DNA of 64,000 nt from Alphaproteobacteria bacterium (GCA_965262775.1 CBDHFT010000005.1:17760-81759), one strand, 5' to 3'. Positions 7,429 to 54,686 are shown, counted from the stretch's first letter. The notes: generated from the sequence alone by a model not told the origin. Program-made: numbers and translations.

Positions 7429-7486
7429 TTGGTGCTGGTCATTGGCGACATAAATTTATTATCATCAAAACATATAAATATTAATA

Positions 7487-8587: not shown

Positions 8588-8589
8588 AA

Positions 8590-10983: not shown

Positions 10984-11013
10984 GAATAACAGATTATCAT
11001 CGAGGAGATTATC

Positions 11014-13866: not shown

Positions 13867-13878
13867 TAAAAAAAATCC

Positions 13879-14226
13879 ATGAGCCAACCATTAGACCTAG
13901 CGGTAAAAATATTTTTATTGATATTTGATGGCGTCGCCCAGTTTTATTATTGGGTGGCTATCTTGCATATCCTGTTATCATGGTTGATTAGTTTTAATAT
14001 CATCGATGTTCATCATCGTGTTATCGGCAGGGTGGTTGATGTCATCAATAGAATTGTCATGCCAGTATATGATTGGATTTATAATTTTTTAAAGCCGATT
14101 GGCGGTGGCATTATCGCCATGTTTGATTTCAGGCCCATGCTATTCATCTTGTTTCTTTACTTTTTTCAACCGATGGTTCATGCTATGGTTTATAAACTTA
14201 TTTATTTTTTAACAACTATTAATTAA
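13879..14226 (+). CDS. YggT-family small membrane protein
   Basis: 115 aa, hydrophobic. The [18 protein letters not shown]...DFRP stretch resembles the YGGT repeat consensus. Confidence 0.5.
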
Positions 14227-14260
14227 CAATTATCATCAACTAGTCTGGGCATTTATTAGC

Positions 14261-25785: not shown

Positions 25786-25797
25786 TGCTTTCTTTCA

Positions 25798-27057: not shown

Positions 27058-27079
27058 GGTGACGTATCATCGTTGTATG

Positions 27080-28297
27080 TTAGTGGCGCGGCAAATGGGT
27101 TGTGGCATTGGTTTTGCCCGACTGCGGGGCGGGCGATTTATCTACTGAGCTATTTACTGAGCTATTATGGCGCGCCGCCAATTTTTCTTCCACCAAGCCA
27201 ACCAAATAATCAACGATGTTATCTTGTTGAAAACGATGGGCGGGAATACCCCCCAAATAAATTTGATGGGTCGCCAAGCCCGATGCCCCCTTGCCGCCGC
27301 CTGTGAATCCTATATCGGTTTCGCGGGCTTCGCCTGGGCCATTCACCACGCATCCTATCACCGATAGGGTGATTTCCTCTTTGATATGCGATAATCTTTT
27401 TTCCAATTCGGTAACGATTTTGATGACATCAAATTGCTGCCTGGCGCAACTGGGGCAGGAAATTATTTTTACGCCACGGCTTCTTATCCCAAGCGATTTT
27501 AACATTTCGAATCCTACCTTCACTTCCTCGGTTATATCGGCTGACAAGGACACGCGAATGGTGTCGCCAATCCCCGCCCAAAGCAACGACCCGATGCCAA
27601 TCGCCGAGCGCACCGAACCGCTTAGCAAACCGCCCGCTTCGGTAATGCCCAAATGCAACGGGCAATCTATCCTATCCGCCAATTGTTGATAGGCCGCCAC
27701 CGCCAAAAAAATATCCGATGCCTTGACCGATATTTTGAATTCATGGAAATCCAAATCTTGTAAAATTTTGGCATGATGCAATGCCGATTCCACCAAAGCC
27801 TCGGGGCACGGCTCCCCATATTTTTCTAGGAGGTTTTTTTCCAACGACCCGCCATTAACCCCTATCCTCATCGAACAACCATAATCCTTGGCGGCCTTCA
27901 CCACTTCTTGAACCCTATCCAAAGAACCAATATTGCCTGGGTTTATGCGTAGGCAAGCCGCGCCATTTTTTGCGGCCTCAATACCGCGGCGGTAATGAAA
28001 ATGAATATCCGCAACAATGGGCACGGGTGAATATTTGGTGATTTCTTTTAGGGCCGCGCTTGATGCTTCATCAGGGCAAGAAACCCTAACAATATCTGCC
28101 CCCGCTTCGCTGGCCCTTTCAATCTGCTGTAATGTTCCCTTGATGTCGGTGGTAAGGCTGTTGGTCATGGTTTGCACGGCGATGGGTGCGGTGCCGCCAA
28201 CCATGACATTGCCAACCTTAATGGTGCGACATTTGCGTCTGATAATAGTTCGAAAAGGGCGGTGATTCTGCATAAGATACCCCCTTTTATATGCCAT
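27080..28297 (-). CDS. ispG: 4-hydroxy-3-methylbut-2-enyl diphosphate synthase
   Basis: GcpE TIM-barrel motifs ([16 protein letters not shown]). The C-terminal Fe-S cluster cysteines are CPSC plus a downstream C. Confidence 0.9.
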
Positions 28298-28336
28298 TTT
28301 TACAGCAAAATTGCAAATTCTTGGCGGGTTTGATTT

Positions 28337-29365
28337 TTATTTACGCAATGCAGTCCTATTGACGACGCGCCATAGCAAATTAAAAAAATTTTCTTCCATC
28401 ATCACACGGCGTTTGTTTTCTGCAATGGCTTTGCTATTTTTTTCATAGGCCCCCGATGCGATGGTTTGTTTGATAATTTTGATTGCCGCGGCGGGTTTAG
28501 AAATATCCAGTGCCATAATCGAACCCGTATCAAAATAATCACCGATATTCGGCGCGCCCGCGTAAAAAACAAAACATTCGGCCAACAATGGGTCGGCCAA
28601 TTTTTCGGTCCAATAATCGGCAATCAGGGAATTTTCCAAAGCAACATGATATTTGTATTTTTCTAACCCCATGGCCTTATCGACGATAAAATTTCTTTTG
28701 CTGCCAAAAACATCCATGCTGTTGATTAATTCCGCGTCCGCCGCCAAAGCATCAACAAACTTGATGCGTTTTTTTTGTTGCGCCGTCATATGTTGACGCG
28801 AAGCTATCACCGATAAAACCTTGGTTTTCTTGGGTGACGCCAACAAACCTTGCCATGTTTTGTTAATAACCCGTTTGGCCGATTTTTGTTTCGATTGCGC
28901 AAAACCATACCACCATTCTAATCCGCCATGGGTTTGCAACCAATCACCACCCTGATACCATCTTGGCCTTGGGTATTGTGCGACCACGGTGCCAAATTGC
29001 GATAAAAATTTTTTGCTGTAAATGACGCGCGCAAAGGGCAATGTCATGGGTTCGGTTTGAATATGGATTTTTTGCGCCCGCGGATGGTCAATCAATTTGG
29101 TTGGAAAGGGTATCGATAATTTTTTGGCAAGGCTATGCCAAAAAGTTTTTTTATAGGGAGGGTAATGCCACACCACCACCCTATCATCGGGCAAAATTTT
29201 TTGATTAAAAACAACCCGCAGGTTTTTCCATATAACCGCCGATTGCTTTCGCGCGGGTGACTGGCGACTTAGAACATAGGCACTCGCCACATGCTGGGTA
29301 AGGACATTGACTCTGATGAACCCCTTGCTTGCGCCCCTGCCCCGTTCTCTCGGTTGTTTTTTCAT
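28337..29365 (-). CDS. glycosyltransferase family 10-like (alpha-1,3-fucosyltransferase-type)
   Basis: KYKYHVALENSLIADYWTEKL matches the GT10 alpha-1,3-FucT signature (YKFxLAFENS...Y[VI]TEK). I see no signal peptide or TM segment. Confidence 0.55.
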   Translation of the reverse strand: MKKQPRERGRGASKGFIRVNVLTQHVASAYVLSRQSPARKQSAVIWKNLRVVFNQKILPDDRVVVWHYPPYKKTFWHSLAKKLSIPFPTKLIDHPRAQKIHIQTEPMTLPFARVIYSKKFLSQFGTVVAQYPRPRWYQGGDWLQTHGGLEWWYGFAQSKQKSAKRVINKTWQGLLASPKKTKVLSVIASRQHMTAQQKKRIKFVDALAADAELINSMDVFGSKRNFIVDKAMGLEKYKYHVALENSLIADYWTEKLADPLLAECFVFYAGAPNIGDYFDTGSIMALDISKPAAAIKIIKQTIASGAYEKNSKAIAENKRRVMMEENFFNLLWRVVNRTALRK

Positions 29366-29408
29366 GCTTTATCTTTTATAGATTTTAAACAAGATTACAA
29401 GAATTTTT

Positions 29409-30470
29409 ATGCCACGCTCGACCCCCCGCTCAACCTCCCCCGTAACTCGCTCGCCTTTTGTTGCGGTTATCATGCCTGCCTACAACGCCGAAAAATATAT
29501 TAGGAAGTCCATCGATTCTATCCTCCACCAAACCTATCAAAATTTAGAACTGATTATTATTGACGATGGTTCCCAAGACAACACGGCAAACATTATCCAA
29601 TCATACAAAGACCCAAGAATACAATATTACAAAAATAAAAAAAATTCTAAAGAATGGTTCTCGCGGCAGGTGGGCCTCCAACAAGCCCTCAACAACAATA
29701 AGGTTGATTATATCGCCTGGCAAGATGCTGACGATATGGCCGCCCCCACCAGGATTGAAAAGCAGTTATCATTTTTGCAACAACATAAGAAAATTAACCT
29801 GGTCGCAACCGACATGATAATTATCGATGACCATGAACAAAAAATAAAAACGGTAAGCAACACCGCCGCCAATGCCGCGTTGCATCGCCAACGGTTATTC
29901 TGCCCAACCATGATGTTTGATAAAAAAATACTTACCGCCTTGCCCATGCCGTTTTTTCGCCCCCTGCCCATTGGCACCGACATTGATTTTCTTTACCGTG
30001 TTATGGAAAAAAATTGGGCGGCGGGGAGCATCCCCCAGCCGCTCTATCATTATCGCCGCAGCAGCGAGCAAACCACTGCCTTCCATCTTCTATCCTTATT
30101 ATACGGCGAATTGGTGCGTTATTCGGCCTATAGCAGGCGTCTGTTGGGTAGCGACTTGCTGCCTATTTCTGATGACCAGCTGTTAACGAGTAAGGATTTA
30201 CCACGCGCCTTCGCCCCATTTATAAAACAAAAAAAATTGAGCAACATCCATAAAATTTTTATTCGGCGTTTTGTCATCGGGCAACTCTATGCCATCATCA
30301 AAAATCCTATCTTGCTTTTTCGTCACAGCCAGATTTTATTTTCTATCTATTTTTTATTATGGCGTTATCAACCATGGCTATCCATCATTCATGGTTTTTA
30401 CGCCTTGCCGCGCAACATTGTAAGTTTTATTTATTGCTTAGCCAATAAAAAAGATTTTTTTGTTGAGTAA
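29409..30470 (+). CDS. family 2 glycosyltransferase
   Basis: VAVIMPAYNAEKYIRKSIDSILHQTY then IIIDDGSQDNT is the GT2 N-terminal DXD-containing consensus. Confidence 0.75.
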   Translation: MPRSTPRSTSPVTRSPFVAVIMPAYNAEKYIRKSIDSILHQTYQNLELIIIDDGSQDNTANIIQSYKDPRIQYYKNKKNSKEWFSRQVGLQQALNNNKVDYIAWQDADDMAAPTRIEKQLSFLQQHKKINLVATDMIIIDDHEQKIKTVSNTAANAALHRQRLFCPTMMFDKKILTALPMPFFRPLPIGTDIDFLYRVMEKNWAAGSIPQPLYHYRRSSEQTTAFHLLSLLYGELVRYSAYSRRLLGSDLLPISDDQLLTSKDLPRAFAPFIKQKKLSNIHKIFIRRFVIGQLYAIIKNPILLFRHSQILFSIYFLLWRYQPWLSIIHGFYALPRNIVSFIYCLANKKDFFVE

Positions 30471-30493
30471 GCTGCGTATCTTTGTTCGCCGTT

Positions 30494-30527
30494 GCTTGCG
30501 CAAGATTTGACTTCTTGCGTAAGATTT
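30494..30527. repeat. 15-bp direct repeat CTTGCG(C/T)AAGATTTG, two copies, in the kup upstream region
   Basis: Copies at 30494-30508 and 30513-30527 match at 14 of 15 positions. Each contains a palindromic TTGCGCAA-like core. Confidence 0.4.
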
Positions 30528-30650
30528 GCTATTTGCAACTAGGAGAATTTATTTATTTTTATTTTTTAAAAAAAATTAAAGACATAGTTATTTTATTTCG
30601 GACGAAATATTTTTTATTATTCGTCGCCAACATGTCTTGCCACAACGCCC

Positions 30651-32543
30651 ATGTCTACCTCTTCGCACAAATCTCAGGGATTCTTAGGCCTCAGTTTTCT
30701 TTCTTTGGGGATTGTTTATGGCGACATTGGCACCAGCCCGCTTTATGCCTTGCAAGGCATATTTAATCAAACAACAGGCATTGGCTTAACCCCCGATAAT
30801 ATCGTGGGCGCCATTTCTTCCATCCTTTGGGCCTTAATAATTACCGTTTCGTTGAAATATGTTATGTTCGTGTTGCGCGCCGATAATCGGGGGGAAGGTG
30901 GCATTTTAGCCCTGCTGACGCTGGTTTCTTCGGTCGTACGCAAAGATACCATGCCCTACACTATATTTATTTTTTTGGGTATGTTGGGCGCGGCCTTATT
31001 TTTGGCCGAGAGTGTTATCACGCCATCCATTTCAGTGCTAGGCGCGTTGGAAGGATTAAATTATGCCCCCGCCTTGCAAAATATAAATTTTAATATCGTT
31101 GGTATTGCCGTTCTGATTTTACTTGGGCTTTTTTATGCACAACGCAGTGGCACCGCAAAAATTGGCAATTATTTTAGCTACATCATGGTGCTGTGGTTCC
31201 TTACTTTAGGTTTTTTTGGTTTTTTGAGTATTATGAAAAATCCAACGATATTATCGGCCATTAACCCGCTTGTTGCTGTCCATTTTTTATACGGTGAGGG
31301 CAAAATTCTATTTGTTGCTCTAAGCGGTATTGTGCTTGCTGTCACTGGGGTGGAAGCATTATATGCCGACATGGGCCATTTGGGGCGCAACCCAATTCGC
31401 TTTGCTTGGACATTGTTTGTCTTGCCATCTCTAGCCCTTAACTACCTTGGTCAAGGGGCCGAGCTGTTGCTTGACCCAGAAGGCTCGATTGTCAATCCTT
31501 TCTACCATCTTTTTCCTCAGCATTATGTTCTCCCTGCGGTTATTCTTGCCACTTTTGCAACAATCATTGCCTCGCAAGCTGTCATCTCTGGCACTTTTTC
31601 CATGACGCGTCAGGCTATCCAACTTGGGCTTTTGCCACGCCTCAACATTATCCATAAATCACCCAATGTCATTGGCCAAATTTATATTCCTTTAATTAAT
31701 TGGCTGTTATTTTTCTTCGTGTTGCTAACAACTATTATATTTCAAAGCACCCATAACCTTGCCTCGGCCTATGGTATTTCCGTTACCCTTACCATGACCA
31801 TTTCTTCCATCTTGCTCTACCAAGTTGTAACCAAACGTTGGCATTGGAAAAAATGGATCGCCATTCCTGTCATCGGATTCTTTTTATTGTTTGATTTGTC
31901 CTTTGCCATTTCCTGTTTAGGAAAATTATGGCACGGCGGGTGGTTTACGATTTTGCTAGCCGCCCTGGTTATGGTGTTGGTGATAACCTGGCGCCAGGGC
32001 AAAGCCATTTTAATGCGCGTTATGCGTAGCGAGGCTTTTTACCTGGAGCCTTATATCAAAAGTTTGATGAGCCGAAAAAAATTCCCATCGGTCGAACGCA
32101 CCGCCATTTATTTGGTTGAAAATACGGATTCGGTGCCTTCGGCGTTGGTTGATAATTTGAAGCATAACATGGTGTTGCACAACCGCAATATTTTTCTTAC
32201 CGTGGAATTCACCACCGCCTCCATCGTGCCCACTGCTCACCGTTTGGAAGTAAAAGAAATGATGACGGGTTTTTGGCAAGTGAAGGTTCGTTATGGTTTT
32301 ATGGAACACCCCGATATTACCTCCATCATTGCTTTGCTTAAACAACGTGGCCTAGCGTTGGATATGCAAAAAACATCCTATTTCATGAGCCATCAAACAA
32401 TTGTTTCCACCCATATTTATGGTATGGCGCGTTGGCGCGAACAAATATTTTCTTGGATGTATCGCAATTCCAATTCGATATTCGAATATTTTGATATTCC
32501 CCCCAGCCAAGTGGTCATCTTGGGTTCGCGGATTCAAATATAA
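30651..32543 (+). CDS. kup: KUP/HAK/KT potassium uptake transporter
   Basis: LSLGIVYGDIGTSPLY is the Kup N-terminal signature. 12 TM helices plus a C-terminal cytoplasmic domain. 630 aa. Confidence 0.9.
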   Translation: MSTSSHKSQGFLGLSFLSLGIVYGDIGTSPLYALQGIFNQTTGIGLTPDNIVGAISSILWALIITVSLKYVMFVLRADNRGEGGILALLTLVSSVVRKDTMPYTIFIFLGMLGAALFLAESVITPSISVLGALEGLNYAPALQNINFNIVGIAVLILLGLFYAQRSGTAKIGNYFSYIMVLWFLTLGFFGFLSIMKNPTILSAINPLVAVHFLYGEGKILFVALSGIVLAVTGVEALYADMGHLGRNPIRFAWTLFVLPSLALNYLGQGAELLLDPEGSIVNPFYHLFPQHYVLPAVILATFATIIASQAVISGTFSMTRQAIQLGLLPRLNIIHKSPNVIGQIYIPLINWLLFFFVLLTTIIFQSTHNLASAYGISVTLTMTISSILLYQVVTKRWHWKKWIAIPVIGFFLLFDLSFAISCLGKLWHGGWFTILLAALVMVLVITWRQGKAILMRVMRSEAFYLEPYIKSLMSRKKFPSVERTAIYLVENTDSVPSALVDNLKHNMVLHNRNIFLTVEFTTASIVPTAHRLEVKEMMTGFWQVKVRYGFMEHPDITSIIALLKQRGLALDMQKTSYFMSHQTIVSTHIYGMARWREQIFSWMYRNSNSIFEYFDIPPSQVVILGSRIQI

Positions 32544-32602
32544 GCCAACTGATATTTCCTAGAAAAAAAATAGCTAGGCTATTGCTTCAAATATAAAGGA
32601 GG

Positions 32603-33952
32603 CTACTTGCCCGCGACCGTCATACCGTCGATGCGTAGGGTTGGGGAATTGTGATGATGAATAAATTCTAAATCGTTGGCGGGCGTCATATTCATAAACA
32701 TTTGGTTCAAATTGCCCGCGACAGTCATTTCATTAACGGCGTGCGATATTTGCCCATTAATAATCCAAAAACCGCTGGCCCCTTGCGAATAATCACCCGT
32801 GACGCCATTGACACCAAACCCCATCAGGCTGGTTATATAAAAGCCCGCCTTGATATCGGCCATCAATGCGGTGGGCGATATTTTTCCCGCAGCAATATGA
32901 ACATTGCTAAGGGCGGGATAAACCCCCGTTAAGCCGCGGTGCGCATGACCCGTCGGTGGTAATTGCAGTTGCCTTGCCGAAGCCAAATCAAGCACGTAGC
33001 AAGTTAAAACCCCCTTATCGATGATATTTCTCTTGGCGGCGGGCAAGCCCTCGCCATCATAAAATTGCGAAGCAAATCCCCTTTTTTGTAAAGGGTCATC
33101 AACCATGGTTATGCCCGTCGCCATAACCTGTTGCCCTAACTTGCCTTGCAAGAAGCTTGTGCCTTTGGCTAACTTTTGGCCATTGATGGCTGAGGCCAGG
33201 TTGCCTATCATGCTGGTCGCAACTCGTGGGTCCAATATAATGGGGTATTGCCCCGATTTTTCTTGCCTGGCCCCCAATTGTGCCGCGGCCCGTTTGGCCG
33301 CGCTGACGCCAACTTTTTCTGGCGGGGTCAAATCGCCAAAAAAAACCTTGCTGGAATAATCATAATCGGCTTCCATATTTGTGCCATCGCTGGCAATCAC
33401 CGAAATGCCCAAGGAATAATGCGAATGTTTTTCTTCACCCCTAAAACCATTGGAAAAGGCAAACCAATCTTGTTGATGACCAAAGGAAACGCTCGACCCT
33501 TCGGAATTAACTATGTTTTTTTCACCGCGCGCCGCATCCTCTATCTGTTTCGCAACCGCTTGCATTGCTTCGGGTAATAATTCGGTTTTATCAAATGTTT
33601 CAAGGTCTTGCACCGCGCCATTTTTGGCGGCGTGGTAAAGTTGTTCGGGGCTTGCCTCCCCCGCAAATGGGTTGTCGGGTAAAACCTTCGCCATCGCCAA
33701 CAATTTGTCTAACAGCGGTTCGATAACATCCATCGTTTTGCCATTGCTGGTAACCGCCGATTCTTTCTGCCCCACTCTAATTTTTATTCCCAACACTTCT
33801 TGTTCGGCGCGTTCGCTTTCTTCAACCTTGCCCATCCTCACCTGTTGGCTTTGGTTAAGCGACTTGCTCAACACCACTTCGGCGGCATCGGCACCCTTGG
33901 CTTTTGCCAATTTGATAACATCGTCAAAAAAATTAAAAATATCGGCTGTCAT
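32603..33952 (-). CDS. pmbA: TldD/PmbA-family metalloprotease
   Basis: 449 aa. The PmbA_TldD fold motifs GFASQFYDGEG and HAHRGL, plus the overall length, favour PmbA over TldD. Confidence 0.75.
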   Translation of the reverse strand: MTADIFNFFDDVIKLAKAKGADAAEVVLSKSLNQSQQVRMGKVEESERAEQEVLGIKIRVGQKESAVTSNGKTMDVIEPLLDKLLAMAKVLPDNPFAGEASPEQLYHAAKNGAVQDLETFDKTELLPEAMQAVAKQIEDAARGEKNIVNSEGSSVSFGHQQDWFAFSNGFRGEEKHSHYSLGISVIASDGTNMEADYDYSSKVFFGDLTPPEKVGVSAAKRAAAQLGARQEKSGQYPIILDPRVATSMIGNLASAINGQKLAKGTSFLQGKLGQQVMATGITMVDDPLQKRGFASQFYDGEGLPAAKRNIIDKGVLTCYVLDLASARQLQLPPTGHAHRGLTGVYPALSNVHIAAGKISPTALMADIKAGFYITSLMGFGVNGVTGDYSQGASGFWIINGQISHAVNEMTVAGNLNQMFMNMTPANDLEFIHHHNSPTLRIDGMTVAGK

Positions 33953-33985
33953 GGTCGAATCAGGGTCTTATCATGTTGCATGGCG

Positions 33986-34318
33986 TTAATAAGTGGCGAT
34001 GCTATTATCTACCTGCAAAGCATATTGATGAATGCCCCCGCTTATGTTTTTGCAATCGTAGCCCTGCTTTTGCAAATATTGGCATACCATGGCCGAACGG
34101 CCACCGTGATGACAAAAAACATACAGGGTTTCATCCTTGGGCAATTCGTCAAGTCTGTCGGTTATTTCATTCATGGAAATATGTTTGGCACCTTTTATGC
34201 TGGCCATGGCTACTTCGTTTGCTTCGCGCACATCCAGCAAAAATACATCTTGCGCCGCCATTATTTTGGCTAGCTCGGCTACCGAGACAGTGGGAATATT
34301 GACAGCCGTATCGTTCAT
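33986..34318 (-). CDS. single-domain rhodanese (sulfurtransferase)
   Basis: Active-site loop CHHGGRS with catalytic Cys. 110 aa. Confidence 0.75.
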   Translation of the reverse strand: MNDTAVNIPTVSVAELAKIMAAQDVFLLDVREANEVAMASIKGAKHISMNEITDRLDELPKDETLYVFCHHGGRSAMVCQYLQKQGYDCKNISGGIHQYALQVDNSIATY

Positions 34319-34332
34319 CTTAGCAATAGTTT

Positions 34333-35064
34333 TTAAGAAGCCATGCGGTCCATGTTGCCGCTGGAATAATGTTGAGGATTGGCAAATTCCGCCATGATGG
34401 GCAACCCCGCCACCTGTCCAAAATAATTAATTTTGCCATTTTTTTCAATCCGCACCAAATTAGCCAATTGATTTTTTTCTTGCGGGGATTTTTTATCCTG
34501 CAGGCTGGTCAACAACGCGCCATGTTCATCCAATTGTGCCAATAATTTTTCAGGAATAGCAGGCAGCGACCCCAGCACAATGATAGATTGGTAAGGAGCA
34601 AATTTTTTGCAACCTTCGGCAATGCTTCCTTCCGCATCGACAATTGTAAAATTGCTTTTAAGAATCATTTTTTTTATTTTGTCGCAAGAACTTTGCAATG
34701 CAAAAACATTCACCCCCATCATGGCTAAAATATTACATTCATAACCATGCCCGCCGCCAATGACCAAGGTTTTATGGCCAGGTTGCAAATTAGCATGTTG
34801 CAGTAATAAACCAGCGGCGGTGGGCGACAATGATATTCTACCCCCTTCACACATTACGCATTTATCGCTATAGGCGCGTTTTTTTTGGTCTATCGTATCA
34901 TCCATAAATTCTTCGCGATTAACATGCAAAAAACCATCCAGCAGCGCGGAATCAATCACGCCCGCTGGCATCAATTGCCCTTCTATCATTTTTTGTCTTT
35001 TTATAATTGTCATTTTTATACCCTGGGTTGGTTTTAATAATTTTCTATAGTCTATTTGTATCAA
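34333..35064 (-). CDS. protein-L-isoaspartate O-methyltransferase-like SAM-dependent methyltransferase
   Basis: SAM-binding motif I LVIGGGHGYECNILAMM. The size and layout resemble Pcm. Confidence 0.5.
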   Translation of the reverse strand: MIQIDYRKLLKPTQGIKMTIIKRQKMIEGQLMPAGVIDSALLDGFLHVNREEFMDDTIDQKKRAYSDKCVMCEGGRISLSPTAAGLLLQHANLQPGHKTLVIGGGHGYECNILAMMGVNVFALQSSCDKIKKMILKSNFTIVDAEGSIAEGCKKFAPYQSIIVLGSLPAIPEKLLAQLDEHGALLTSLQDKKSPQEKNQLANLVRIEKNGKINYFGQVAGLPIMAEFANPQHYSSGNMDRMAS

Positions 35065-35558
35065 GGTTGGAAGGTATTTTGTAGCGGATTTTGTTGCACG
35101 GGATTGATGGGGTTAACCTTATTTTTATCTTTGCCGTAACGTCCAAAATTGGTAACCAATTCTTGTAGGAATGATTTATCACGCGCAACGGTTGGCGTGG
35201 TATCTTTCGACACCGATAATTTAACTGCATCCTCCCCCGTGAAGCGTTTGTAGCCTAAGTAAACCCCTTGGTCGCTTAACTTTATTTGATAAACCTCTTG
35301 GTCGGCGAAGCTTGGCGATAAGAAGCCCCATTGATTTCTGGTCTGGCTGAAATAATACCATATACGTTTGTCGTAATTGGAAAAACTGGTTGGCGTGCCA
35401 AGGTTGGCAAGCACATCGTTGTAGGTGCTTTTTCCAACTTCTAACATTTCTAATTGATAATCCTTCACCACCTGACCGCGGCGCAATGTTTCGGCGCAAG
35501 CCGACAACCCCACAAGCAAGCACAACAACAAAAGCAAAGAAAAAAAACGCTGGGTCAT
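35061..35558 (-). CDS. bamE: outer membrane protein assembly factor BamE (SmpA/OmlA lipoprotein)
   Basis: Signal peptide with a lipobox LSAC. The stretch KSTYNDVLANLGTPTS matches the BamE fold consensus. Confidence 0.65.
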   Translation of the reverse strand: MTQRFFSLLLLLCLLVGLSACAETLRRGQVVKDYQLEMLEVGKSTYNDVLANLGTPTSFSNYDKRIWYYFSQTRNQWGFLSPSFADQEVYQIKLSDQGVYLGYKRFTGEDAVKLSVSKDTTPTVARDKSFLQELVTNFGRYGKDKNKVNPINPVQQNPLQNTFQP

Positions 35559-35607
35559 AGGTTATGTATATATTCTTTCTAAGAATTTGACGAGTCAAAA
35601 ATAGCAG

Positions 35608-36502
35608 TTACAAATGGAAGCTATCAAGGACAAAATGCGGCGTCGCATCATAAGTCTTAAATAAATTTTCCATCCGTTGTTTGTCTATGCCATGATAAAA
35701 ATCCGCCGCATGAATGCCACCCAAAATAAACAAAGAATCAATCTCGGCCAACCTCGCCCCCGCAATATCATGCTCAAGGCTATCACCTATCCCAATTATT
35801 TTTTTTGCGGCGGGGAAATTCCTGCTTGCACATATCGTAAACTTCTTTGGCTGGTTTGCCAAACCTTACAACATGGCCACCCTGTTCTTCATAATATTTT
35901 GCTAAACTGCCTGGGCAAATTTTTAATGACCCGTCGGGCATGTTGGCCACCATATCGGGGTTGGTGCATAACATGGTGATATTTTTTTTTATCCCAATGT
36001 CCATCTCCTCTTGATAGGCTTCCAATGTGCCACGCCCCGCACCCGCCGCCAAGATAATATCGGCTTCTTCAACCGATTCGGTGATGATAAAGCCCAAGTC
36101 ATCTATGGCACGATGGTCATCGTCAAATCCCCAAAACAGTAATTTTTTCTTATCGCCCGTTGCAATATTTTTTGCCAAGGGGTGTTTTTTATCTATCAAC
36201 CATTCGCGCGCCGCCTGGCCCGAACTGATAACCTTATGGATAGCGTCCATGTTGAAACCCATTCTGCCTATCAATTTATGGGAATGGCTGGCTAACTTAC
36301 CCGAATTAGAAAGGACAATAATTTTTGTGCCTGCTTCATACAGCGCGGCCACGGCATCCACCGCGCCACGAAATGGCACCACCCCATTATGCAGCACGCC
36401 CCATTGGTCAATAATCGCCAAATCGTAATGGCCTAGAATATCTTTTATGCCGCTTAAAATTCTTGTCATGCTGTTGTTTGTCTTGTTGTTTTCCTTAATC
36501 AA
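35608..36502 (-). pseudogene. HAD-superfamily subfamily IIA hydrolase, split by a frameshift in a T8 run (about 35798-35805)
   Basis: ORFs 35783-36502 and 35608-35862 overlap. Together they give a contiguous HAD-IIA homologue (DQWGVLHNG ... KIIGIGDSLEHDIAGA). Confidence 0.6.
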
Positions 36503-37698
36503 ATCGATGGCAAGGGCAAGCGCGCCAAGCGCGTTTGCTTATCAAACATTTTTCCCATGACCAATGATACGCCATGCGGTAAATTATTATAAATCTGTTC
36601 ATTATCAACATTAAATACCATCATCTTTAACCTCAATTTTTCTAAAGACAGGACTTTCTCCGCCATGAGTTCGTAGCCCATTTTTTCCTGCAGGAATTGC
36701 AAGTTATCAAAAGAAGATAAATAAAAATCTATCCCCGTGCGTAATAATAGCGACGGATCATCATCCAATATCGGGTTGAGCAAAGTTGTGTTGTCGTTGG
36801 TATAAAGCATCGCCAATTTGATTCCTTCCGAATTTAAAAATTGGCAATTTTCAGCATGACGGTAAAGCCCCGCGGTAAATGGCAAAATGAAAACCATACG
36901 GCTAAAGGCCCTTGCCAACCCTGGGTTTGAAATTTTCTGTGATTTTAAAAAACTTTTGAGGTCATTCATGAAGCCCTTCTCGTTCAGGGCGCGTTCGGAC
37001 AGGGGGAAAAAGCAATAGGGCAAATTATTGACGTGCGAAGATTTTTCGTGGCTGCCTTCTTCGACTTGGAAGCCATCTTGAAATACTTTTTGCCAATAAA
37101 AGCGCAAGGTTTCCAATAATAAAATTTCGATATCACCCGCCACGGCATCTTTGGGACTGGCATTAATAATACTGGCGGTGTCAATACCCTGACCATTGGG
37201 GTATTCGATAAATCCTTGGCAATAATAACCTTTCAATTGGCGGGTTTTTGTATCCACCACGTCATGCCCTATCATGACCAGGGCCAACCCCCCCGTTAAC
37301 AATTCGTTCTGGTAAGCATTTTTAAAAATATCCTGCATGGCATTAACTTTTTTGCTTGGAACTTTTTTGGGTTCACTGAATTCTGGCATCACGGCACTGG
37401 GGCTTGCTTTATGTTGCGTGGCGCCAAGATTAGAAGCCATGCGGTTTGAACTAGCCGAGGACGACCTATCGGTTGCACCAGCGCGGGCATGCGGCGTAGC
37501 ATGAAGTTCGGCAACCGACCTTCTGCCCTTTCCCCGACTCGCCAACAGCAAATGCAAAAAGGATAAGCCAAGCCATGTCAGGCCACAATAAATAACGATG
37601 TTATATAAATCTAACTGAGAATAAAAATAAAAGCTTAGTCCTAGCAATAAGACAAGTGCAAAATAAAAAAATATATAAAGGAAGTTTTTTCTTAACAT
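36499..37698 (-). CDS. hypothetical membrane-anchored protein with no recognisable family
   Basis: Two N-terminal TM helices, a Ser/Ala-rich linker, then a roughly 300-aa domain with no motif I can place. The gene overlaps the HAD gene start by 4 nt. Confidence 0.45.
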   Translation of the reverse strand: MLRKNFLYIFFYFALVLLLGLSFYFYSQLDLYNIVIYCGLTWLGLSFLHLLLASRGKGRRSVAELHATPHARAGATDRSSSASSNRMASNLGATQHKASPSAVMPEFSEPKKVPSKKVNAMQDIFKNAYQNELLTGGLALVMIGHDVVDTKTRQLKGYYCQGFIEYPNGQGIDTASIINASPKDAVAGDIEILLLETLRFYWQKVFQDGFQVEEGSHEKSSHVNNLPYCFFPLSERALNEKGFMNDLKSFLKSQKISNPGLARAFSRMVFILPFTAGLYRHAENCQFLNSEGIKLAMLYTNDNTTLLNPILDDDPSLLLRTGIDFYLSSFDNLQFLQEKMGYELMAEKVLSLEKLRLKMMVFNVDNEQIYNNLPHGVSLVMGKMFDKQTRLARLPLPSI

Positions 37699-37775
37699 GA
37701 TAATACCAGCACTAATGATTAGATGGGAAAGAGATAAAATAATAATCTATTGTTATCAATCCTCCACCATGTATC

Positions 37776-38349
37776 TTATTCCATGTCATCATCCCTATTT
37801 GATTTTCTTTTATTCACGGCGCGTTGGTTGCCAGTCAAAAAACTAGGCAGGTCTTCACCATTGGCATTTTCATTGCCCGACGATTCTTCGTTATCGTTAT
37901 CATCAACATAACGCACAACGCCGCGACTCATCATCCTTACATCGCCGCCATTACCGCCGCGCATGCCGCCAGAACGTGGCAAAGGTTGTTGCGAATCGTT
38001 ATCGCCATAATTATCAGATGACATACCGTCATCGTCGCTCGGTTTAAATTGTCCCTGATGCTCGGTTATCAGCCGTTGATAATGTTCGGCATATTGCAAA
38101 CAAGCCTCCGCCAATACTCTATCACCATCTGACATGGCTTCTTTAGCCAACCACAAGATATTTGTCCATGATCTGCATCGCGTTACCACGCACCCTGCCC
38201 AATGGGCCATTTGAATCCATTTGTTGTCGTAAGGGATTTCTTACCACGGCGCTGCTTTGTCTGCTGCCGCCACCGCGACCACGATTTCCACCACCACGGT
38301 TACCACCGCCGCGACTGCCATGACGGCGCCAATTATTCTGTCTTTGCAT
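37776..38349 (-). pseudogene. DUF4167-family protein split by a 1-bp insertion
   Basis: ORF 38143-38349 encodes the Gly/Arg-rich N-terminus and the FDSNGP-like box (MDSNGPLGRVRGNAMQIMDKYL). ORF 37776-38210 continues it in the +1 frame (LAKEAMSDGDRVLAEACLQYAEHY). The shift lies within the ccaacc at 38147-38152. Confidence 0.55.
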
Positions 38350-38691
38350 TATTTTTTCTATTTAGTCCGATTATTATTGAGTTTTAGTTTTTCATGGTTG
38401 GTTTTCTTAACCAACTTTTTCTAGAATAATATAAATTCTAAAAAAATATTAAACCAATGATTAACAATGAAGATATTTTAATATTTAGCTGTGCCTAACA
38501 GATTATCAACAATCTATAATACAATTTTTTTTTAGTTATAACATAAGCAAGTTATGATACAACCATTGGTTAGCCCAAAAAATATCTATAACAAGCAAAT
38601 ACCGCAAACCAACACCCCTGTCAAGCAAAATTTAAAAAAAGTTATTGCTTAAATTTCTAACATTAATCTTTCGGGACGTTCGAGCAAATTT

Positions 38692-39801
38692 TTAAACCTC
38701 GGTCAGGAAGCTGACGGCTTCCCTGCCATCGATGATGCGATGGTCGTAAGATAAAGCAAGGTACATCACGGGGGCGATGGCTATCATGCCGTTTTTAACC
38801 ACGGCGCGTTCTTGTATCTTGTGCATGCCCAATATAGCCGATTGTGGCGGGTTAAGAATGGGGGTTGATAACATCGAACCAAAAATACCGCCGTTGGTAA
38901 TGGTGAAGGTGCCGCCCGCAAGGTCGGCCAGGGTTAATTGTCCGCCCTCGGCCTTGATGCCAAACTCCGAAATTGCCTTTTCGATAACAGCGAATGATTT
39001 TTTATCGGCATCTTTTAATACTGGCACCACCAAACCCGTGGGTGAGCCAACCGCGATACCAATATCGTAATAATTTTTATAGATAACCTCATTCCCCGAA
39101 ATTTCAGCGTTGACTATCGGAAAAGATTTGAGGGCCGCACATACCGCCTTCACAAAAAAACTCATGAAGCCCAATTTTGTGCCATATTCTTTTTGAAAAC
39201 GTTCGCGATGCAATTGGCGCATTTCTATCAATGACGACATATCAACCTCGTTAAAGGTGCTTAAGGTTGCCGCGTTGTTTTGTGAATATTTCAACCGCCT
39301 GGCGATGGCTTCGCGCAGTTTGCTCATCTTAACTCTTTCCTCCCCCCGTTCATCGGTCACGTGGGGGGGCATGTGATAGGTTTGCACCTGTGGCATGGGC
39401 GTCAATTGAGCTGGCGATTGCAGCGAGGTTGGCGCAGCGGATGGCAAACTATCTTCTGATGCTTCTTTCATTTTTTTATTATGAGCCGATTCATCCAATT
39501 TTGCTGGCGAAGTTGCCACGGGGGCTTCCATTGCTTTTTTTGGTTTATTATCGGCGGTGGCTATCGCATGTTCGTCGATGATTCCCAATAAGCCACCAAC
39601 TTGAACATCGTCGCCCTCTTTAACTTGCCATTGGGTCAACACCCCGTTTTCGGGGGCTATCACTTCTAAACTTATTTTTTCTGTATCTAACAGGCAGAGG
39701 TTGTCATCTTTTTTCACGCTGTCGCCTGGCGCCACCAACAACTTCGCAACGCGTGCCGACATAATCGACTCACCCAACGCGGGAACCTTCACTTCTATCA
39801 T
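38692..39801 (-). CDS. sucB: dihydrolipoyllysine-residue succinyltransferase (E2 of 2-oxoglutarate dehydrogenase); the last ~17 codons are replaced by TEV-stop through a 1-bp insertion
   Basis: The lipoyl domain and the catalytic DHRIIDG motif are intact. The conserved tail KNLLERPERLMLEI-stop is readable in the +1 frame and ends at 38649. The ancestral CDS was therefore 38649-39801. Confidence 0.8.
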   Translation of the reverse strand: MIEVKVPALGESIMSARVAKLLVAPGDSVKKDDNLCLLDTEKISLEVIAPENGVLTQWQVKEGDDVQVGGLLGIIDEHAIATADNKPKKAMEAPVATSPAKLDESAHNKKMKEASEDSLPSAAPTSLQSPAQLTPMPQVQTYHMPPHVTDERGEERVKMSKLREAIARRLKYSQNNAATLSTFNEVDMSSLIEMRQLHRERFQKEYGTKLGFMSFFVKAVCAALKSFPIVNAEISGNEVIYKNYYDIGIAVGSPTGLVVPVLKDADKKSFAVIEKAISEFGIKAEGGQLTLADLAGGTFTITNGGIFGSMLSTPILNPPQSAILGMHKIQERAVVKNGMIAIAPVMYLALSYDHRIIDGREAVSFLTEV

Positions 39802-39817
39802 AATTCTTTTTCTATCA

Positions 39818-42800
39818 CTATTTTAGTGCCTCGGCAATGATAGTTTGTTGTTCAAGGTTATGGGCCTTCGCCGAACCGACGGCGGGGCTGGCGGCCTCGC
39901 GCCGACCGATATACAATAGATCTTGTTGCGGCGCGTTTAATTGGCGCAGTAATTTTTCTATAAGCGGGCGCACGAATGACCACGCGCCGTTATTTTCGGG
40001 TTCTTCTTGGCACCAAATAAATTGCGCCTGCCGACATTTTTCCATAATGGCTTTCAGGCTTTCATCGGGGAACGGGTATAATTGCTCCAACCTCACGATA
40101 GCAATATCCTTGCGCCCGCTGTTTTCGCGCCCTTGATAAAGGTCATAATAAATTTTTCCCGAACATAAGATAACTTTGGCAAATTTATCGGGCGCAACCA
40201 ATTGCCCCGCGGTGAAGGCATCGTCGGGCAGGATACGCCGAAAGGACGACCCCGTAGCAAAATCATCTAGGTTAGAAACACAAAGCGGATGACGCAGCAG
40301 CGACTTGGGGCTCATCACAATAAGTGGTTTGCGAAAGTTCCTTTTGATTTGGCGGCGCAAGGCATGAAAATAATTGGCGGGCGTGGTGATATTACATACT
40401 TGCCAATTATCATCGGCGGAAAGATTCAAATAACGTTCCAACCTGGCGGAGGAATGCTCTGGCCCTTGCCCCTCATAACCATGGGGCAACAACATGACCA
40501 AGCCACACATTTTAAACCATTTGGTTTCGCCCGCCGCAATAAATTGGTCAATAATCACTTGCGCGCCATTGGCAAAATCGCCAAATTGCGCTTCCCACAA
40601 TATTAAAGCATGGGGCTCGGCGCAGGAATAACCATATTCAAAACCCAACAACCCAAATTCGCTTAAGCGGGCTATTAATAACCTCTATCTTGCTTTGCCC
40701 CGCGCGCAGGTGGTTAAGCGGCACGTAGGACGCGCCCGTTTTTTGGTCCGACCACACCGCATGGCGATGAGAAAAAGTGCCGCGCTCCGAATCTTCGCCC
40801 GACAATCTAATCGGTATCCCCTCGAGCAGTAGGCTACCAAACGCCAAACCCTCGGCCATGCCCCAGTCAATTTTTTTACCTTTTTCCACGCTCAATCTTT
40901 TTATTTGTAGCGACGTAGCAATTTTTGGGATGCAAAGCAAAGTTGGCGGGGGCTTGGGTAATCTTGCTGGTTATTTCTTGTATAACATCGCTTTCGACCG
41001 CGGTGGTGCCTTTCCTCTTGCCCCCTTCGGCCATGGTCAAACCGTGCCAGCGCCCTTCCAACCAATCAACCTTATTTGGTTTAAAATCCTTGGCAAGGGC
41101 TAAGGCATTTTCTAAACGCTCGTTAAAACTCTTGCTTATCTCTTGCACTTCTGAATCGCTAAAAATATGTTCGGCCACCAATTTCTTGGCGTAAATATTA
41201 CTTAGGCGCGGATGTTCCAAAATTTTTGATACATCAAAGGTTGGGTAAAAAATGGCTCGTCGGCTTCGTTATGGCCATGGCGGCGATAACAATAAATATC
41301 GATAACAATGTCCTTTTTAAATTTTTGCCTATATTCGACAGCCAATTGCGCGGCGCGCACGCATACCTCAGGGTCGTCGCCATTAACATGCAACACGGGG
41401 GCATCTATCATTTTGGCCATGTCGGTGCAGTAGGGCGATGACCGACCGTCTTTCGGCACCGTGGTGAAACCTATCTGGTTGTTGATGGCGATATGGATGG
41501 TGCCGCCCGTGCGGTAACCCTTTAGCTGCGATAATAAAAAAGTTTCTGCCACCACCCCCTGACCAATGAAGGCCGCATCGCCATGCAACAACACCGCCAT
41601 CACCTTCTCTTTTTATCGTCGTTTTTTTGTTTTTGCTTGGCCCGCACCTTGCCCAACACCACGGTGTTAACCGCTTCAAGGTGGCTGGGGTTTGGCGCCA
41701 GGGAAAGGTGAACCGTGCGTTGTTCGCCATTGGGGGTATTAACCACCATGTCATGGCTAGCCCCGATGTGATATTTTACATCGCCCATCTGTGGCAGGTT
41801 ATCGGGGGTGACACTGCCGCCATAAAATTCATAAAATATTTGCCGATAGGGTTTACCCAAAATATTGGCCAGCACATTCAATCGGCCGCGATGTGCCATA
41901 CCAATATCAACCTCTTCTATCCCCAACTCGGCACCGCGGGTGATGATTTCCATCAACACGGGGATGGTGCTTTCGCCGCCGTCTAAACCAAACCTCTTTG
42001 CGCCCTGGTATTTTTTATCCAAAAAACTTTCAAACATTTCTGCATGAACTATCTGCTGATAAATCGATTTCTGCTTGTTGGCGGTTAGGCTTTTGCCCGC
42101 ATAATCCGCCTCGACCTTTTCTTGCAGCCAGAGTTTTTCATCGGGGTCCTGCACATGCATGAATTCGATAGCAAAACGACCGCAATAGGCCTTGCGACAA
42201 ATAGCAATAATATCTTTTAACCTTGCGCTTTCTAACCCCAAATAATAATTGATATAGATTGTTTTTTCCAAATCCTCTTCGGTGAAGCCGTGCGAGCGAT
42301 AATCCAATTCTGGAAAATTTATTTTTGGCGATAGTTGCAACGGGTCAAGGTCAGCCTCCAAATGGCCACGGGTTCTGAAGGCACGAATGAGCATGATGGC
42401 GCGTATAGAATTAAGTCGCTCCGCCACTTCGCGCTCGCCCATCACCCCTTCTATCACCTTTTGATCGCTGAGGTAACGGCTCAAACTATCTTGTAAATTT
42501 TCGCCGCGCACCATGCCCGATAACAAAAAATCGGAAAGGCTCTTGCCAAATTTTTTATGCACGCCGATAACCGCATCTTTTTGCGCCGCGCCGTTGCTTG
42601 GTTTCCGCGCCCACGATGGTTGATAACTGCTGGCGTTGGTAAAATATTGTTCATTGCCATTGCTGGGGTCGGATTGCGCTGAAACTGGGTTTGCGTCATC
42701 CACCCCATCCATGGCGGCAAACACCTGTTGCCAATCCGACGCTACCGAGGACGGATCTTGTAAATAGCGTCTATAAATATCAAAAATATAGGCCTCCCCG

Positions 42801-42988
42801 CCCTGCAGGCCAGCCTGCAAACCCGCTTGTAAAATATCTTGCAAGTTTCCATTCCTATTCGCCTGCGCCGTGCCCCCTGGGTTAGCGTCCAAACTTCCTA
42901 CTGCCTTTGCTTGCATCGCGCCGTTAGCGGGCAAACCAGGTTTAGGGGAAGCATCGCCACCATCTAAAATATCATTATTCTGGGTCAT
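39818..42988 (-). pseudogene. sucA: 2-oxoglutarate dehydrogenase E1 component, broken into five ORFs by four single-base frameshifts
   Basis: The fragments 41600-42988, 41202-41603, 40876-41220, 40638-40940 and 39818-40651 are each colinear with consecutive segments of E. coli SucA ([43 protein letters not shown]). Each junction is a 1-bp indel. Confidence 0.8.
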
Positions 42989-43134
42989 ATATTTATATTA
43001 TTCAATAAGATACGGCATTCTTGCGTTGCAACCATTCTTCATGCAATCTTCTTTTTATATTGTGTATTTTTCGATAAATTGCACCAAAGAGGCACGATTG
43101 CGCGCAGGTTTTGCGATAGGAAACATTATACCAT

Positions 43135-44012
43135 TTATTTATTCAAAAGGGAAACCATGGTTTGCCCCATCAAATGCTGGGGCGGGCGCCACGGCAATAC
43201 CCGCCGAACGCAGGGCTTCGATTTTGACGCGGCGGTGCCCATGCCCCCCGCGACAATAGCCCCAGCATGCCCCATGCGCTTACCCGCAGGGGCCGATAAC
43301 CCCGCGATGAATCCGACCATGGGCTTTTTAATCTTGGATCTTTTATAAAATGCGGCAGCCTCCTCTTCTTCCCCGCCGCCTATTTCGCCTATCATAACAA
43401 TGGCATCGGTATCTTTATCAGCCAAAAACATTTCTAAACAATCAATGAAACTTAAACATGCACAGGGTCGCCGCCAATCCCCACGCAGCTGGATTGCCCC
43501 AATCCCGCTTGGGTGGTTTGCCACACCGCTTCGTAGGTTAAAGTGCCCGAACGCGAAACAACCCCAACCTTGCCCGGTTGATGAATAAAGCCAGGCATGA
43601 TGCCAATTTTGCATTGGCCTGGCGTAATGACACCCGGGCAATTGGGTCCCAACAAAATTGTTTTGCTGGCCTTCAGTTTTTCTTTCACCCTAACCATATC
43701 CAGTGTCGGGATGCCTTCGGTGATACAAACCACCAACCTTACATCGGCATCGATGGCTTCAATAATGGCGGCGGCGGCAAAAGCGGGTGGCACATAAATG
43801 ACCGAGTTGCCTCGCAACCAGTTTTCTCTTTTTGCCTCCGCCACGGTATTAAAAACGGGTAAACCCAAATGACTTTGCCCGCCTTTCTTCGGCACCACGC
43901 CGCCAACCATCTTGGTGCCATATTGCATGGCTTGCTCGGTATGGAACGAGCCCTGCAACCCCGTTAGGCCCTGGCATATTACTTTAGTGTTTTTATCAAC
44001 CAATATAGACAT
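43135..44012 (-). pseudogene. sucD: succinate--CoA ligase alpha subunit, split by one frameshift near 43455-43475
   Basis: The N-terminal ORF ends ...GIGGDPVHV-stop. The downstream ORF resumes at [25 protein letters not shown] in another frame. Confidence 0.8.
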
Positions 44013-44036
44013 TTCTTTTTTTTATTTTATTTGCCT

Positions 44037-45224
44037 TCACATTTTTTTTGCGGCATCGCCCAGGTCGCTTGCGGTAATAATCGGTAAACCAGAATCTTGT
44101 AATAGTTTTTTGCCTAACTCGACATTGGTTCCTTCCAACCTTACCACCAACGGCAAATGCAAATCCTTCATGCCGTGCAACGCGTTGATAATTCCTTTGG
44201 CAATAATATCGCACCGCATAATCCCGCCGAAGATATTAACCAATATTCCTTTTACATTTTTATCCGACAAAATAATTTCGAAGGCTTTCTTGACTCGTTC
44301 CTCGGTTGCGCCGCCGCCGACATCTAAAAAATTGGCGGGCGACGCCCTTCCTGCTTAATAATATCCAATGTCGCCATGGCAAGCCCCGCGCCATTCACCA
44401 TGCAGCCTATGTTACCATCCAGCTTGATATAACTTAGGTCATGCTTGGCGGCTTCGCGTTCCATCGGTTCTTCTTTCGGCGGCGTCGCGCAATTTTTCTA
44501 TATCGGGGTGTCTGAATAATCCATTGTCATCGAAACTTATTTTTGCATCAAGCAATACCAACCGATTATCTTGGGTTAAAATCATGGGATTAATTTCTAT
44601 CAAGGAACAATCTTTTTCTAAAAATACTTTGAACAAACGCTCATAATTTTTTCCCAGACCGCCCACGACCGAGGATGGCAAACCTAAGTTCTGCGCCGCC
44701 TGCGCCGCCATGGTGCTATCGATTGGTTTATTGATGTCCAAAGGAATTTTGAAATTTTGTCGGGTGTGTTTTTCTGCAACCTCCTCTATATTCATGCCGC
44801 CCGCTGGCGACAGCACAAAAATCGGCGTTGCCGAAGCACGGTCAATCAGCAGGCTTAGGTAAAATTCCGCCTTAATGTCGGCTCCCTCCTCGATATACAA
44901 ACACTGGACTTCTTTGCCCAACGCGCCAGTTTGCTTGGTCATCAGGGTATGGTGCAACATGGCTTCGGCGTTTTTCATCACCTCCGCGCTTGTCTTGACC
45001 ACGCGCACCCCGCCTTTTTCATTCTCTTGTCCTTTAAAATGCCCCGCGCCCCTGCCCCCTGCGTGAATTTGCGCCTTCACAACGAATATTTTATTTCCTG
45101 CAATTTTTTGCAATGCCGCGGTGGCTTTTTCTACCTCATCCAGGCTTCTTATCGCTACGCCATGTGGCGCGGGCAAGCCGTAAGCTTTTAATATTTCTTT
45201 GCCCTGATATTCATGAATATTCAT
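44037..45224 (-). pseudogene. sucC: succinate--CoA ligase beta subunit with two frameshifts about 150 nt apart
   Basis: N-terminal ORF 44439-45224 and C-terminal ORF 44037-44270 are separated by a stretch that reads as conserved SucC sequence ([47 protein letters not shown]) only in a third frame. The shift sites are at ttctttc (about 44471) and ggcggg (about 44335). Confidence 0.8.
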
Positions 45225-45260: not shown

Positions 45261-46223
<963 letters not shown>

Positions 46224-53717: not shown

Positions 53718-54686
53718 TTATGGCCAAACGTCAGAGATGACCTTTGCCTTACGCAACGTTTCCAAATTTGTATATCTTGGCCCTTGTAACTGGTCGCCAT
53801 TGCGCCGCCTTTTAATGCGTTCTTCAAAAACCTTAGGCTTATCCTTAAAATTTAATCTATAATAATTAATCATCTTTCCCGTTTTTTTATTATTTTTGGT
53901 TTCGTGAACAACTATGTTTTCGACTGCTGCGTAGTGAGTGATCGCAGAAATAGGCGATTTGCGATAAATAGCCAAATACTTAATTTTGTCTTTTAAATTC
54001 TCGCTTATTCTTATTGCATACCAACAATTTTCTTCCATAAATATTTTATTAAAAGTTTCTTCACCACTAGGCACAACAATGGCATCAATCTGCTTATTAC
54101 CTTGCAATAAATCATTTTTAATTTCTGCTATTTCTTCTTCTGCATCTTCTGCGTTTCTATCATTAGATTTTTTAATTTTCTTTGCCGATTCATCAAAGGC
54201 CTCTAGCCCAATTAATTCTGCAACATGTAATATTTCTTTTAACCTGTTTCTTAAAGACGATTTGCTAGAATCATCAAGAGTCGGTTCGCTAGGAAAATTT
54301 CCATTTTCTAATACACATACACCCAACTCGCCAGCCAACTTGCATAAAGCATATTCTAGCCATTGAATCCGCGCCTTATCAAATTTTTCTGAAAGAATGG
54401 CCACGCCCCATTCCCAAAAATCTTTATTTTTAATATGAGATTCAATCCTTCCCCTCACCGTGGCATCACCCTCGCCAATATAAATACGCTCAACATCATC
54501 ATTATGCCCAGAATAACCAACCAAAATATAAACACCATTATGTTTAAAATTCTCTTGGTCTTTAACTAAATCCCATTTGTCTTTTGGGAACGCTATAGCT
54601 GACCACACCCAGTCGTCGTTGACAATGATGCGGGCACCCTGCGGGTCGCCATCTAAACAACGAATTTTTATTGTATATTCTGCCAT
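53718..54686 (-). CDS. GIY-YIG-family nuclease with a C-terminal DUF4357-like domain
   Basis: N-terminus: GVYILVGY followed by RIYIGEGDATVRGRIESH and then E in QWLEYAL (GIY-x11-YIG-R-H-E spacing). C-terminus: ...ITHYAAVENI...QGPRYTNLETLRKA resembles the DUF4357 consensus as I recall it. The gene is clearly more AT-rich than both flanks. Confidence 0.6.
   Translation of the reverse strand: MAEYTIKIRCLDGDPQGARIIVNDDWVWSAIAFPKDKWDLVKDQENFKHNGVYILVGYSGHNDDVERIYIGEGDATVRGRIESHIKNKDFWEWGVAILSEKFDKARIQWLEYALCKLAGELGVCVLENGNFPSEPTLDDSSKSSLRNRLKEILHVAELIGLEAFDESAKKIKKSNDRNAEDAEEEIAEIKNDLLQGNKQIDAIVVPSGEETFNKIFMEENCWYAIRISENLKDKIKYLAIYRKSPISAITHYAAVENIVVHETKNNKKTGKMINYYRLNFKDKPKVFEERIKRRRNGDQLQGPRYTNLETLRKAKVISDVWP

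Follow-up and report, generated by a model that had tools for sequence, protein, structure and literature searches.

Frameshifts confined to the sucCDAB region of an alphaproteobacterial contig are very probably local consensus errors

Introduction

Six neighbouring genes on a contig from an alphaproteobacterium (GCA_965262775.1; CBDHFT010000005.1:17760-81759), amongst them the four suc genes for 2-oxoglutarate dehydrogenase and succinyl-CoA synthetase, are broken by frameshifts, which raises the question of whether the organism has lost these genes or whether the sequence misreports them. The window referred to below is the whole stretch of 64,000 nucleotides that was analysed, and all positions are counted in it; the feature under study occupies positions 35608-45224. 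The original prediction held that the frameshifts are confined to this part of the window and offered two explanations, a poorly assembled segment and a contiguous region under relaxed selection. We report comparisons with close relatives which make it very probable that the small insertions and deletions (indels) stem from a low-coverage assembly with local errors in its consensus, and are not mutations of the organism. This verdict rests on evolutionary inference together with the precedent of a like patch in the same species.

Results

The indels and the genes they split

The alignments rely mainly on L001 (OZ241918.1), the 1.63 Mb chromosome of an uncultured alphaproteobacterium representing a sister species, which was found by a genome scan with mdh and is 93% identical in DNA to window positions 35248-56251. 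A second relative, L161, is a Logan contig (run SRR13639655) that shares 98.8% identity with L001 and 94% with window positions 25403-38955. Listing of the open reading frames (ORFs) gives a minus-strand order of mdh, sucC, sucD, sucA, sucB, a DUF4167 gene, a gene for a 399-residue protein and a gene for a HAD-type hydrolase; all but mdh and the 399-residue gene are split into neighbouring ORF pieces. The features, with indels relative to L001, are as follows.

45261..46223, minus strand: mdh, intact, with no indel; upstream edge of the affected stretch
44025..45224, minus strand: sucC, with the pairs 44768 +C/44754 -T, 44655 +G/44638 -G and 44476 +A/44347 -G
~44057 -T/~44047 +A, minus strand: probable fourth pair, at the 3′ end of sucC
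43135..44012, minus strand: sucD, with +A at 43833 and +AA at 43808 (net +3), -G at 43457, -A at 43225 and +A at 43178
39818..42988, minus strand: sucA (E1), five ORF pieces, with -A at 41614, -A at 41227, +A at 40926 and +G at 40668
38650..39801, minus strand: sucB (E2 of 2-oxoglutarate dehydrogenase), with +1 T at 38696, which removes about 14 C-terminal residues
37776..38349, minus strand: DUF4167 gene, split, with +1 G at 38152
36499..37698, minus strand: 399-residue hypothetical protein, intact inside the stretch, with no indel
35608..36502, minus strand: HAD-IIA-type hydrolase, two ORFs, with +1 C at 35815 (C3 to C4)

In the alignment to L001, coding sequence from 35815 to 44768 has its frame broken by 18 certain indels, or about 20 if the probable pair is counted, and tblastn of the L001 proteins against the window returned the identical frame path. 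Every coding indel whose length is not a multiple of three is 1-2 bp long. Ten frame changes are visible in the ORFs of the six genes (35815, 38152, 38696, 40668, 40926, 41227, 41614, 43457, 44347 and 44476), and they fall as originally described, with one each in the HAD, DUF4167, sucB and sucD genes, four in sucA and two in sucC; ORF fragments and the L001 alignment agree on this assignment, as do Pfam matches for the HAD, DUF4167 and sucB genes. The predicted total of ten, all of which could be placed, is nevertheless a lower bound, as the fuller count includes pairs of nearby indels that compensate for one another and so escape notice in the ORFs (44768/44754, 44655/44638, 43833+43808 and 43225/43178). 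Spacers of the stretch contribute three more indels of 1 bp (43056, 38533 and 38479). Removal of the indels restores full-length conserved proteins, with a sole apparent stop at sucC codon 396; a nonsense substitution could account for this codon, a -1/+1 pair, graded as probable, being the better explanation.

At the level of individual genes, the Hydrolase_6 and Hydrolase_like domains of the HAD protein (Pfam) each fall in an ORF of their own, and the insertion at 35815 is present neither in L001 nor in L161, where the gene is a single ORF of 297 and 286 amino acids, respectively. DUF4167 profile positions 1-42 lie in one ORF and 45-77 in the next; the insertion at 38152 is likewise absent from both relatives (190 amino acids, intact). 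The sucB piece reaches position 219 of the 232 in the catalytic-domain profile, and the alignment with L001 suggests a true 3′ end near 38650; the catalytic domain differs from that of L001 by one residue, and the linker carries in-frame deletions of 3 bp and 9 bp (39503 and 39446). The four sucA indels sum to zero, and the variable N-terminus of this gene holds an in-frame insertion of 24 bp near 42853 (42830-42853). Of the two intact genes, mdh shares 96.6% amino acid identity with L001, and the 399-residue protein, for which a Pfam search returned no match, shares 94%.

None of the shifts in the window is conserved in L001 or L161. In L001 the ORFs are intact throughout (sucC 400 amino acids, sucD 291, sucA 1048, sucB 387, DUF4167 190 and HAD 297, along with the 399-residue gene), as are the DUF4167 gene, the HAD gene and the end of sucB in L161. 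For sucC, the intact ORF of L001 and the broken ORF of the window identify the window's state as the derived one; the L001 readings EKTPEKIF and EKIMGGLF presumably resemble E. coli SucC.

Confinement of the frameshifts to one stretch

The remainder of the window reads cleanly, as originally claimed. Genes tested outside the stretch match their NCBIfam profiles end to end, amongst them PheS, PheT, UvrA, FolD, Nth, Rho, Era, RNase III, LepB, PrfA, HisS, IspG, Kup, PmbA, DapE, acetoacetate-CoA ligase and LexA. The A9 run in pheS, cited in the original prediction, is indeed in frame, although it lies at 7655-7663 and not at 7652-7660. Neither comparison of the flanks with the sister species revealed a coding frameshift: none was seen against L001 at 46.2-56.2 kb, nor against L161 at 25.4-35.6 kb, where the only relevant difference is of 1 bp at the PCMT stop codon. 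At 1-14.5 kb, comparison with a same-species contig (L160, described below) revealed indels that break the genes of that contig and not those of the window. The profile matches of the genes tested reveal no pseudogene in the other 54 kb, which is not the picture expected of a genome undergoing decay.

Such clustering is unlikely to be random, as had been argued. Alignment to L001 counts 20 coding indels in 9057 bp of the stretch against 0 in 8439 bp of flanking coding sequence (Fisher p = 2e-6), and all ten ORF-visible events lie inside 15% of the window (p = 6e-9). Composition was ruled out as the cause: homopolymer runs of at least five bases are not denser in the stretch (12.0 per kb inside, 13.0 per kb outside), and guanine-plus-cytosine content and skew are unremarkable across it. 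A chimeric or recombinant segment was also rejected, identity to L001 being alike inside and outside the stretch. One candidate frameshift elsewhere, at the ORF overlap 30482-30766/30651-32543, proved spurious, since Kup matches its profile at 5-622 of 622.

Selection on the affected genes

For a comparison of codons, indels were removed by homology to L001. The resulting ratio of nonsynonymous to synonymous divergence (dN/dS) was 0.114 for sucC, 0.023 for sucD, 0.118 for sucA, 0.167 for sucB, 0.015 for the DUF4167 gene and 0.061 for the HAD gene, and amongst intact genes 0.083 for the 399-residue gene, 0.075 for mdh and 0.036-0.149 for seven other flank genes. The ratio is not raised in the affected genes (0.015-0.167) relative to the flanks (0.036-0.149), and dS is similarly distributed (0.15-0.34 and 0.14-0.31, respectively). 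Most of the nonsynonymous differences in sucA and sucB, and the higher ratios of these two genes, come from the N-terminal ~120 residues of sucA (~42600-42990), which are highly diverged and rich in Gln, Gly and Leu, and from the sucB linker. The corrected proteins are close to their L001 counterparts (98% for sucD, 99.5% for DUF4167 and ~99% for sucA from residue ~125 to 1048).

Other traces of selection point the same way. The corrected genes contain no nonsense substitutions, and the larger indels within them (24, 9 and 3 bp) are all multiples of three, which indicates continued selection for reading frame. Polarised amino acid changes number 2 in the window lineage against 10 in the L001 lineage for sucA, 4 against 5 for sucC, 0 against 1 for sucD and 0 against 3 for mdh; the outgroups are distant (43-62% identity) and leave many sites unpolarised, and by this count the window lineage is apparently not the faster-evolving one. 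Nor is substitution divergence raised in the sub-patches richest in indels, which are 92-97% identical to L001, as are the flanks. Relaxed selection on the stretch, the second of the explanations originally put forward, is contradicted by these codon-level comparisons, including the dN/dS measurement proposed alongside it.

Calibration against neutral spacers

Spacers in the flanks offer a neutral scale for the indels. Their 852 aligned bp differ from L001 by 83 substitutions and six indels, three of 1 bp and three of 10-13 bp, and the left-flank spacer indels against L161 measure 1, 1, 1, 10, 11 and 20 bp; the neutral rate of small indels is thus about 0.04 per substitution, with many neutral indels being long. 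At this rate, 20 neutral indels imply some 550 extra substitutions (about 6% extra divergence over 9 kb of the window lineage), none of which is seen: total coding divergence is 6.9% inside the stretch and 5.5% outside, with the difference residing in naturally variable segments. The indel-to-substitution ratio in the stretch exceeds the neutral spacer value more than fivefold, and the size spectra of the indels in stretch and spacers differ (p = 0.008).

The spacer indels between the window and the sister species (at 33965, 32580, 30495, 51080, 47496 and 46292) often measure 10-20 bp, and short direct repeats (CCCTGATAA.. and AGCCTAG..) flank at least two of the longer indels.

These results bear directly on a genuine and very recent inactivation of the sucCDAB branch and its two neighbours, in which mutations were fixed after selection had been lost; we regard this as improbable. 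The pattern of genes would suit it, as all four suc genes, which together make up a single unit of the pathway, are hit whilst the adjoining mdh is spared, and some indels sit in A5-A6 runs where slippage is plausible. The sister genome is also small, and genomes of such a size are typical of host-dependent bacteria in which pathway losses occur. Against inactivation stand the dN/dS values, which are as in the flanks, the lack of any excess of derived residues in the window lineage, and the finding of neither nonsense substitutions nor deletions above 2 bp that break the frame. The density of small coding indels (0.22%) is moreover close to that of the spacers (0.35% over the whole divergence of both lineages), so real decay would need neutrality ever since the two lineages separated, with dN near 0.13, when the observed values are 0.002-0.039. 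In sucD, five indels accompany only four nonsynonymous differences from L001. Inactivation would further require an indel-only mutational burst that left no trace in substitutions, and a coincidence by which two unrelated genes (DUF4167 and HAD) were hit too. The other 54 kb hold no further pseudogene.

Character of the indels

The indels lie in runs of 1-6 bases and not chiefly in long homopolymers. Insertions number 12 and deletions 9, and 4 of the former are not duplicates of an adjacent base. Slippage duplications account for most small insertions in nature, untemplated single-base insertions being typical of noisy reads, and in character the indels resemble noisy-read error more closely than replication slippage.

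The positions of the shifts also bear on recoding, in which programmed ribosomal frameshifting or transcriptional slippage would allow the shifted genes to be expressed, a reading to which we give next to no credence. Several shifts do lie in A-runs, and the indels of sucC and of sucA sum to zero. The runs are only 1-6 bases long, however, no slippery motif is common to the shift sites, stop codons occur within the shifted segments, and some 20 sites would each need rescue. Recoding is effectively refuted by the shifts being neither conserved in L001 or L161 nor associated with a shared motif.

A further possibility, which we consider very improbable, is that the indels from sucC to sucA are mostly errors and that at least one of the isolated shifts at HAD 35815, DUF4167 38152 and sucB 38696 is real. 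These three sites are 0.5-2.3 kb apart, with an indel density far below that of sucC-sucD; each lengthens a short run by one base, as slippage can, and the change in sucB costs only its last ~14 residues. Yet neither the corrected DUF4167 protein, with its near-identity to L001, nor the dN/dS of the HAD gene gives a sign of decay, the three sites adjoin the dense patch, and two sister-species sequences are without them. Sequence alone cannot tell these three from errors.

A like patch in the same species

The clearest parallel to the suc stretch comes from the contig L160 ('ctg137113_2.20x_l', ENA ERZ26695388), whose name states 2.20x coverage. It was found by an exact look-up of ribosomal protein L20 and is 98.3% identical to window positions 1-14527. 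Over its first ~10 kb it differs from the window by two one-base indels (at ~3.5-4.0 and 9.0-9.5 kb), and at its end, in the last 5.1 kb (window positions 10.0-14.5 kb), by 42 one- or two-base indels, with mismatches not raised. These indels break pheT and uvrA, both of which are full-length in the window; as the patch lies in an essential gene, real decay is not credible there. L160 bears the same signature as the suc stretch, namely a kilobase-scale patch of indels only, and is of low coverage by its own label.

In the remainder of L160, strain-level substitutions relative to the window are patchy, at 0-19 per 500 bp.

Other features of the window

Some further genes drew attention. A gene of 322 amino acids (53718-54686, minus strand) has no Pfam match, and its N-terminal ~185 residues match the PADLOC candidate anti-phage family PDC-S14 (E = 1e-39). 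It shares 34% protein identity with its syntenic counterpart in L001 (1523-2530), the flanking genes sharing 96-98%, a pattern suggestive of a candidate defence gene whose allele is hypervariable or has been swapped.

The short gene for a cation-diffusion-facilitator (CDF) transporter (3693-4256, minus strand; 187 amino acids) matches its profile at 2-196 of 285 and is without the cytoplasmic C-terminal domain. A frameshift was considered here and rejected: the gene adjoins tRNA-His (3556-3632), which leaves no space for the missing domain, and no frameshift is present. L160 has the same 187-residue form, which marks it as a shared feature and not an error.

A diaminopimelate-decarboxylase-like gene (23-601, plus strand) is cut by the left window edge and is found in its full form of 449 amino acids in L160. 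A second such gene (20934-22088, plus strand) encodes a paralogue of 384 amino acids which scores below the lysA cut-off and is possibly another pyridoxal phosphate-dependent decarboxylase.

Discussion

Of the two explanations originally offered, the poorly assembled segment fits all of the indirect evidence, including L160. The consensus across ~35.8-44.8 kb (~9 kb, or roughly the length of one long read) would have been built on too few or poor reads, such that base-level insertion and deletion errors persisted, at ~0.25% overall and ~0.6% across sucC-sucD, whilst substitution errors, less frequent in data of this kind, did not. Most probably the cell itself has intact, expressed copies of sucC, sucD, sucA, sucB, the DUF4167 gene and the HAD gene, just as the sister species does.

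Several points weigh against this account. Both the low local coverage or quality of the assembly behind the window and the technology used for sequencing are inferred. All five close indel pairs restore the reading frame, an outcome with a chance probability of ~0.03; this would also be expected from selection on a working gene, or from local mis-registration in a noisy consensus. The indels are unevenly spread, with three gaps of 1.6-2.3 kb, so that one uniformly bad read is too simple a picture. The affected genes belong mostly to one functional unit, the 2-oxoglutarate-to-succinate branch, as would be the case in a pathway loss. Finally, no same-species sequence over 35-45 kb was found by exact-protein look-ups (with mdh, a sucA fragment, rhodanese and BamE) or by two metagenome scans (one with the lineage-specific 399-residue protein and one with mdh, the best mdh identity being 62%).

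The occurrence of the window's proteins in public data was also considered. In the public collection they occur only on a single NCBI/ENA contig of 110,216 bp, apparently the draft contig of an uncultured, small-genome alphaproteobacterium to which the window belongs, with no counterpart in the public-run assemblies, and those fragment proteins that were looked up and are present in the collection are each alone in their cluster and on one contig. Occurrence on a single contig is compatible with, and hints weakly at, a low-abundance organism in a long-read metagenome. A search with the protein of the sucA fragment (41600-42988) returned itself and then relatives of at most 55% identity, L001 sucA (expected at ~88%) being absent. 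Since the same collection does contain mdh, PmbA and other proteins of L001, the absence seems to reflect incompleteness of the collection or a fault of the tool, and not biology.

Two reports document gene-fragmenting indel errors in long-read assemblies and present tools for them, Kastor (PMC12007338) and Homopolish (PMC8011154). The suc stretch resembles long-read or low-coverage errors of this kind in that 1-2 bp indels split conserved genes, no substitution load accompanies them and relative-guided removal restores the proteins; it differs in that the indels are limited to ~9 kb, the rest of the 64 kb being clean, and are neither spread along the contig nor concentrated in long homopolymers. 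Pseudogene clusters formed by reductive evolution in host-restricted bacteria, such as those left when endosymbionts lose steps of the tricarboxylic acid (TCA) cycle, are comparable in that neighbouring genes from a single pathway each have several frameshifts and the sister genome is small; unlike such clusters, the stretch has low dN/dS, no excess of change, and no nonsense substitutions or larger deletions.

A third comparison is with poly(A) slippage in insect endosymbionts, where Tamas et al. in 2008 reportedly described frameshifts in poly(A) tracts that are rescued by transcriptional slippage. Common to both are a small genome and frameshifts in housekeeping genes, some of them in A-runs. 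Rescue by slippage reportedly needs tracts of ~9 or more A, however, and here the runs comprise 1-6 bases, several shifts lie outside runs, and the shifts are not conserved.

Were the indels real, a localised burst of indels alone would have destroyed the genes for 2-oxoglutarate dehydrogenase and succinyl-CoA synthetase, and two neighbours, before substitutions accumulated. We consider this quite improbable; if true, a small-genome alphaproteobacterium would have been caught in the act of losing a branch of the TCA cycle, through a regional indel-generating process and in an unusually abrupt pathway loss.

Local consensus error, the account we favour, carries a practical lesson. Comparison with a close relative offers a way to tell error patches from decay without reads, by three measures: the indel-to-substitution ratio calibrated on spacers, the frame-keeping of larger indels and the lineage-specific load of amino acid changes. 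For the organism itself, if the stretch is an error patch, automatic annotation of the contig would report a bacterium that has neither 2-oxoglutarate dehydrogenase nor succinyl-CoA synthetase, and the TCA cycle of this uncultured lineage would appear broken, in error, in any metabolic reconstruction.

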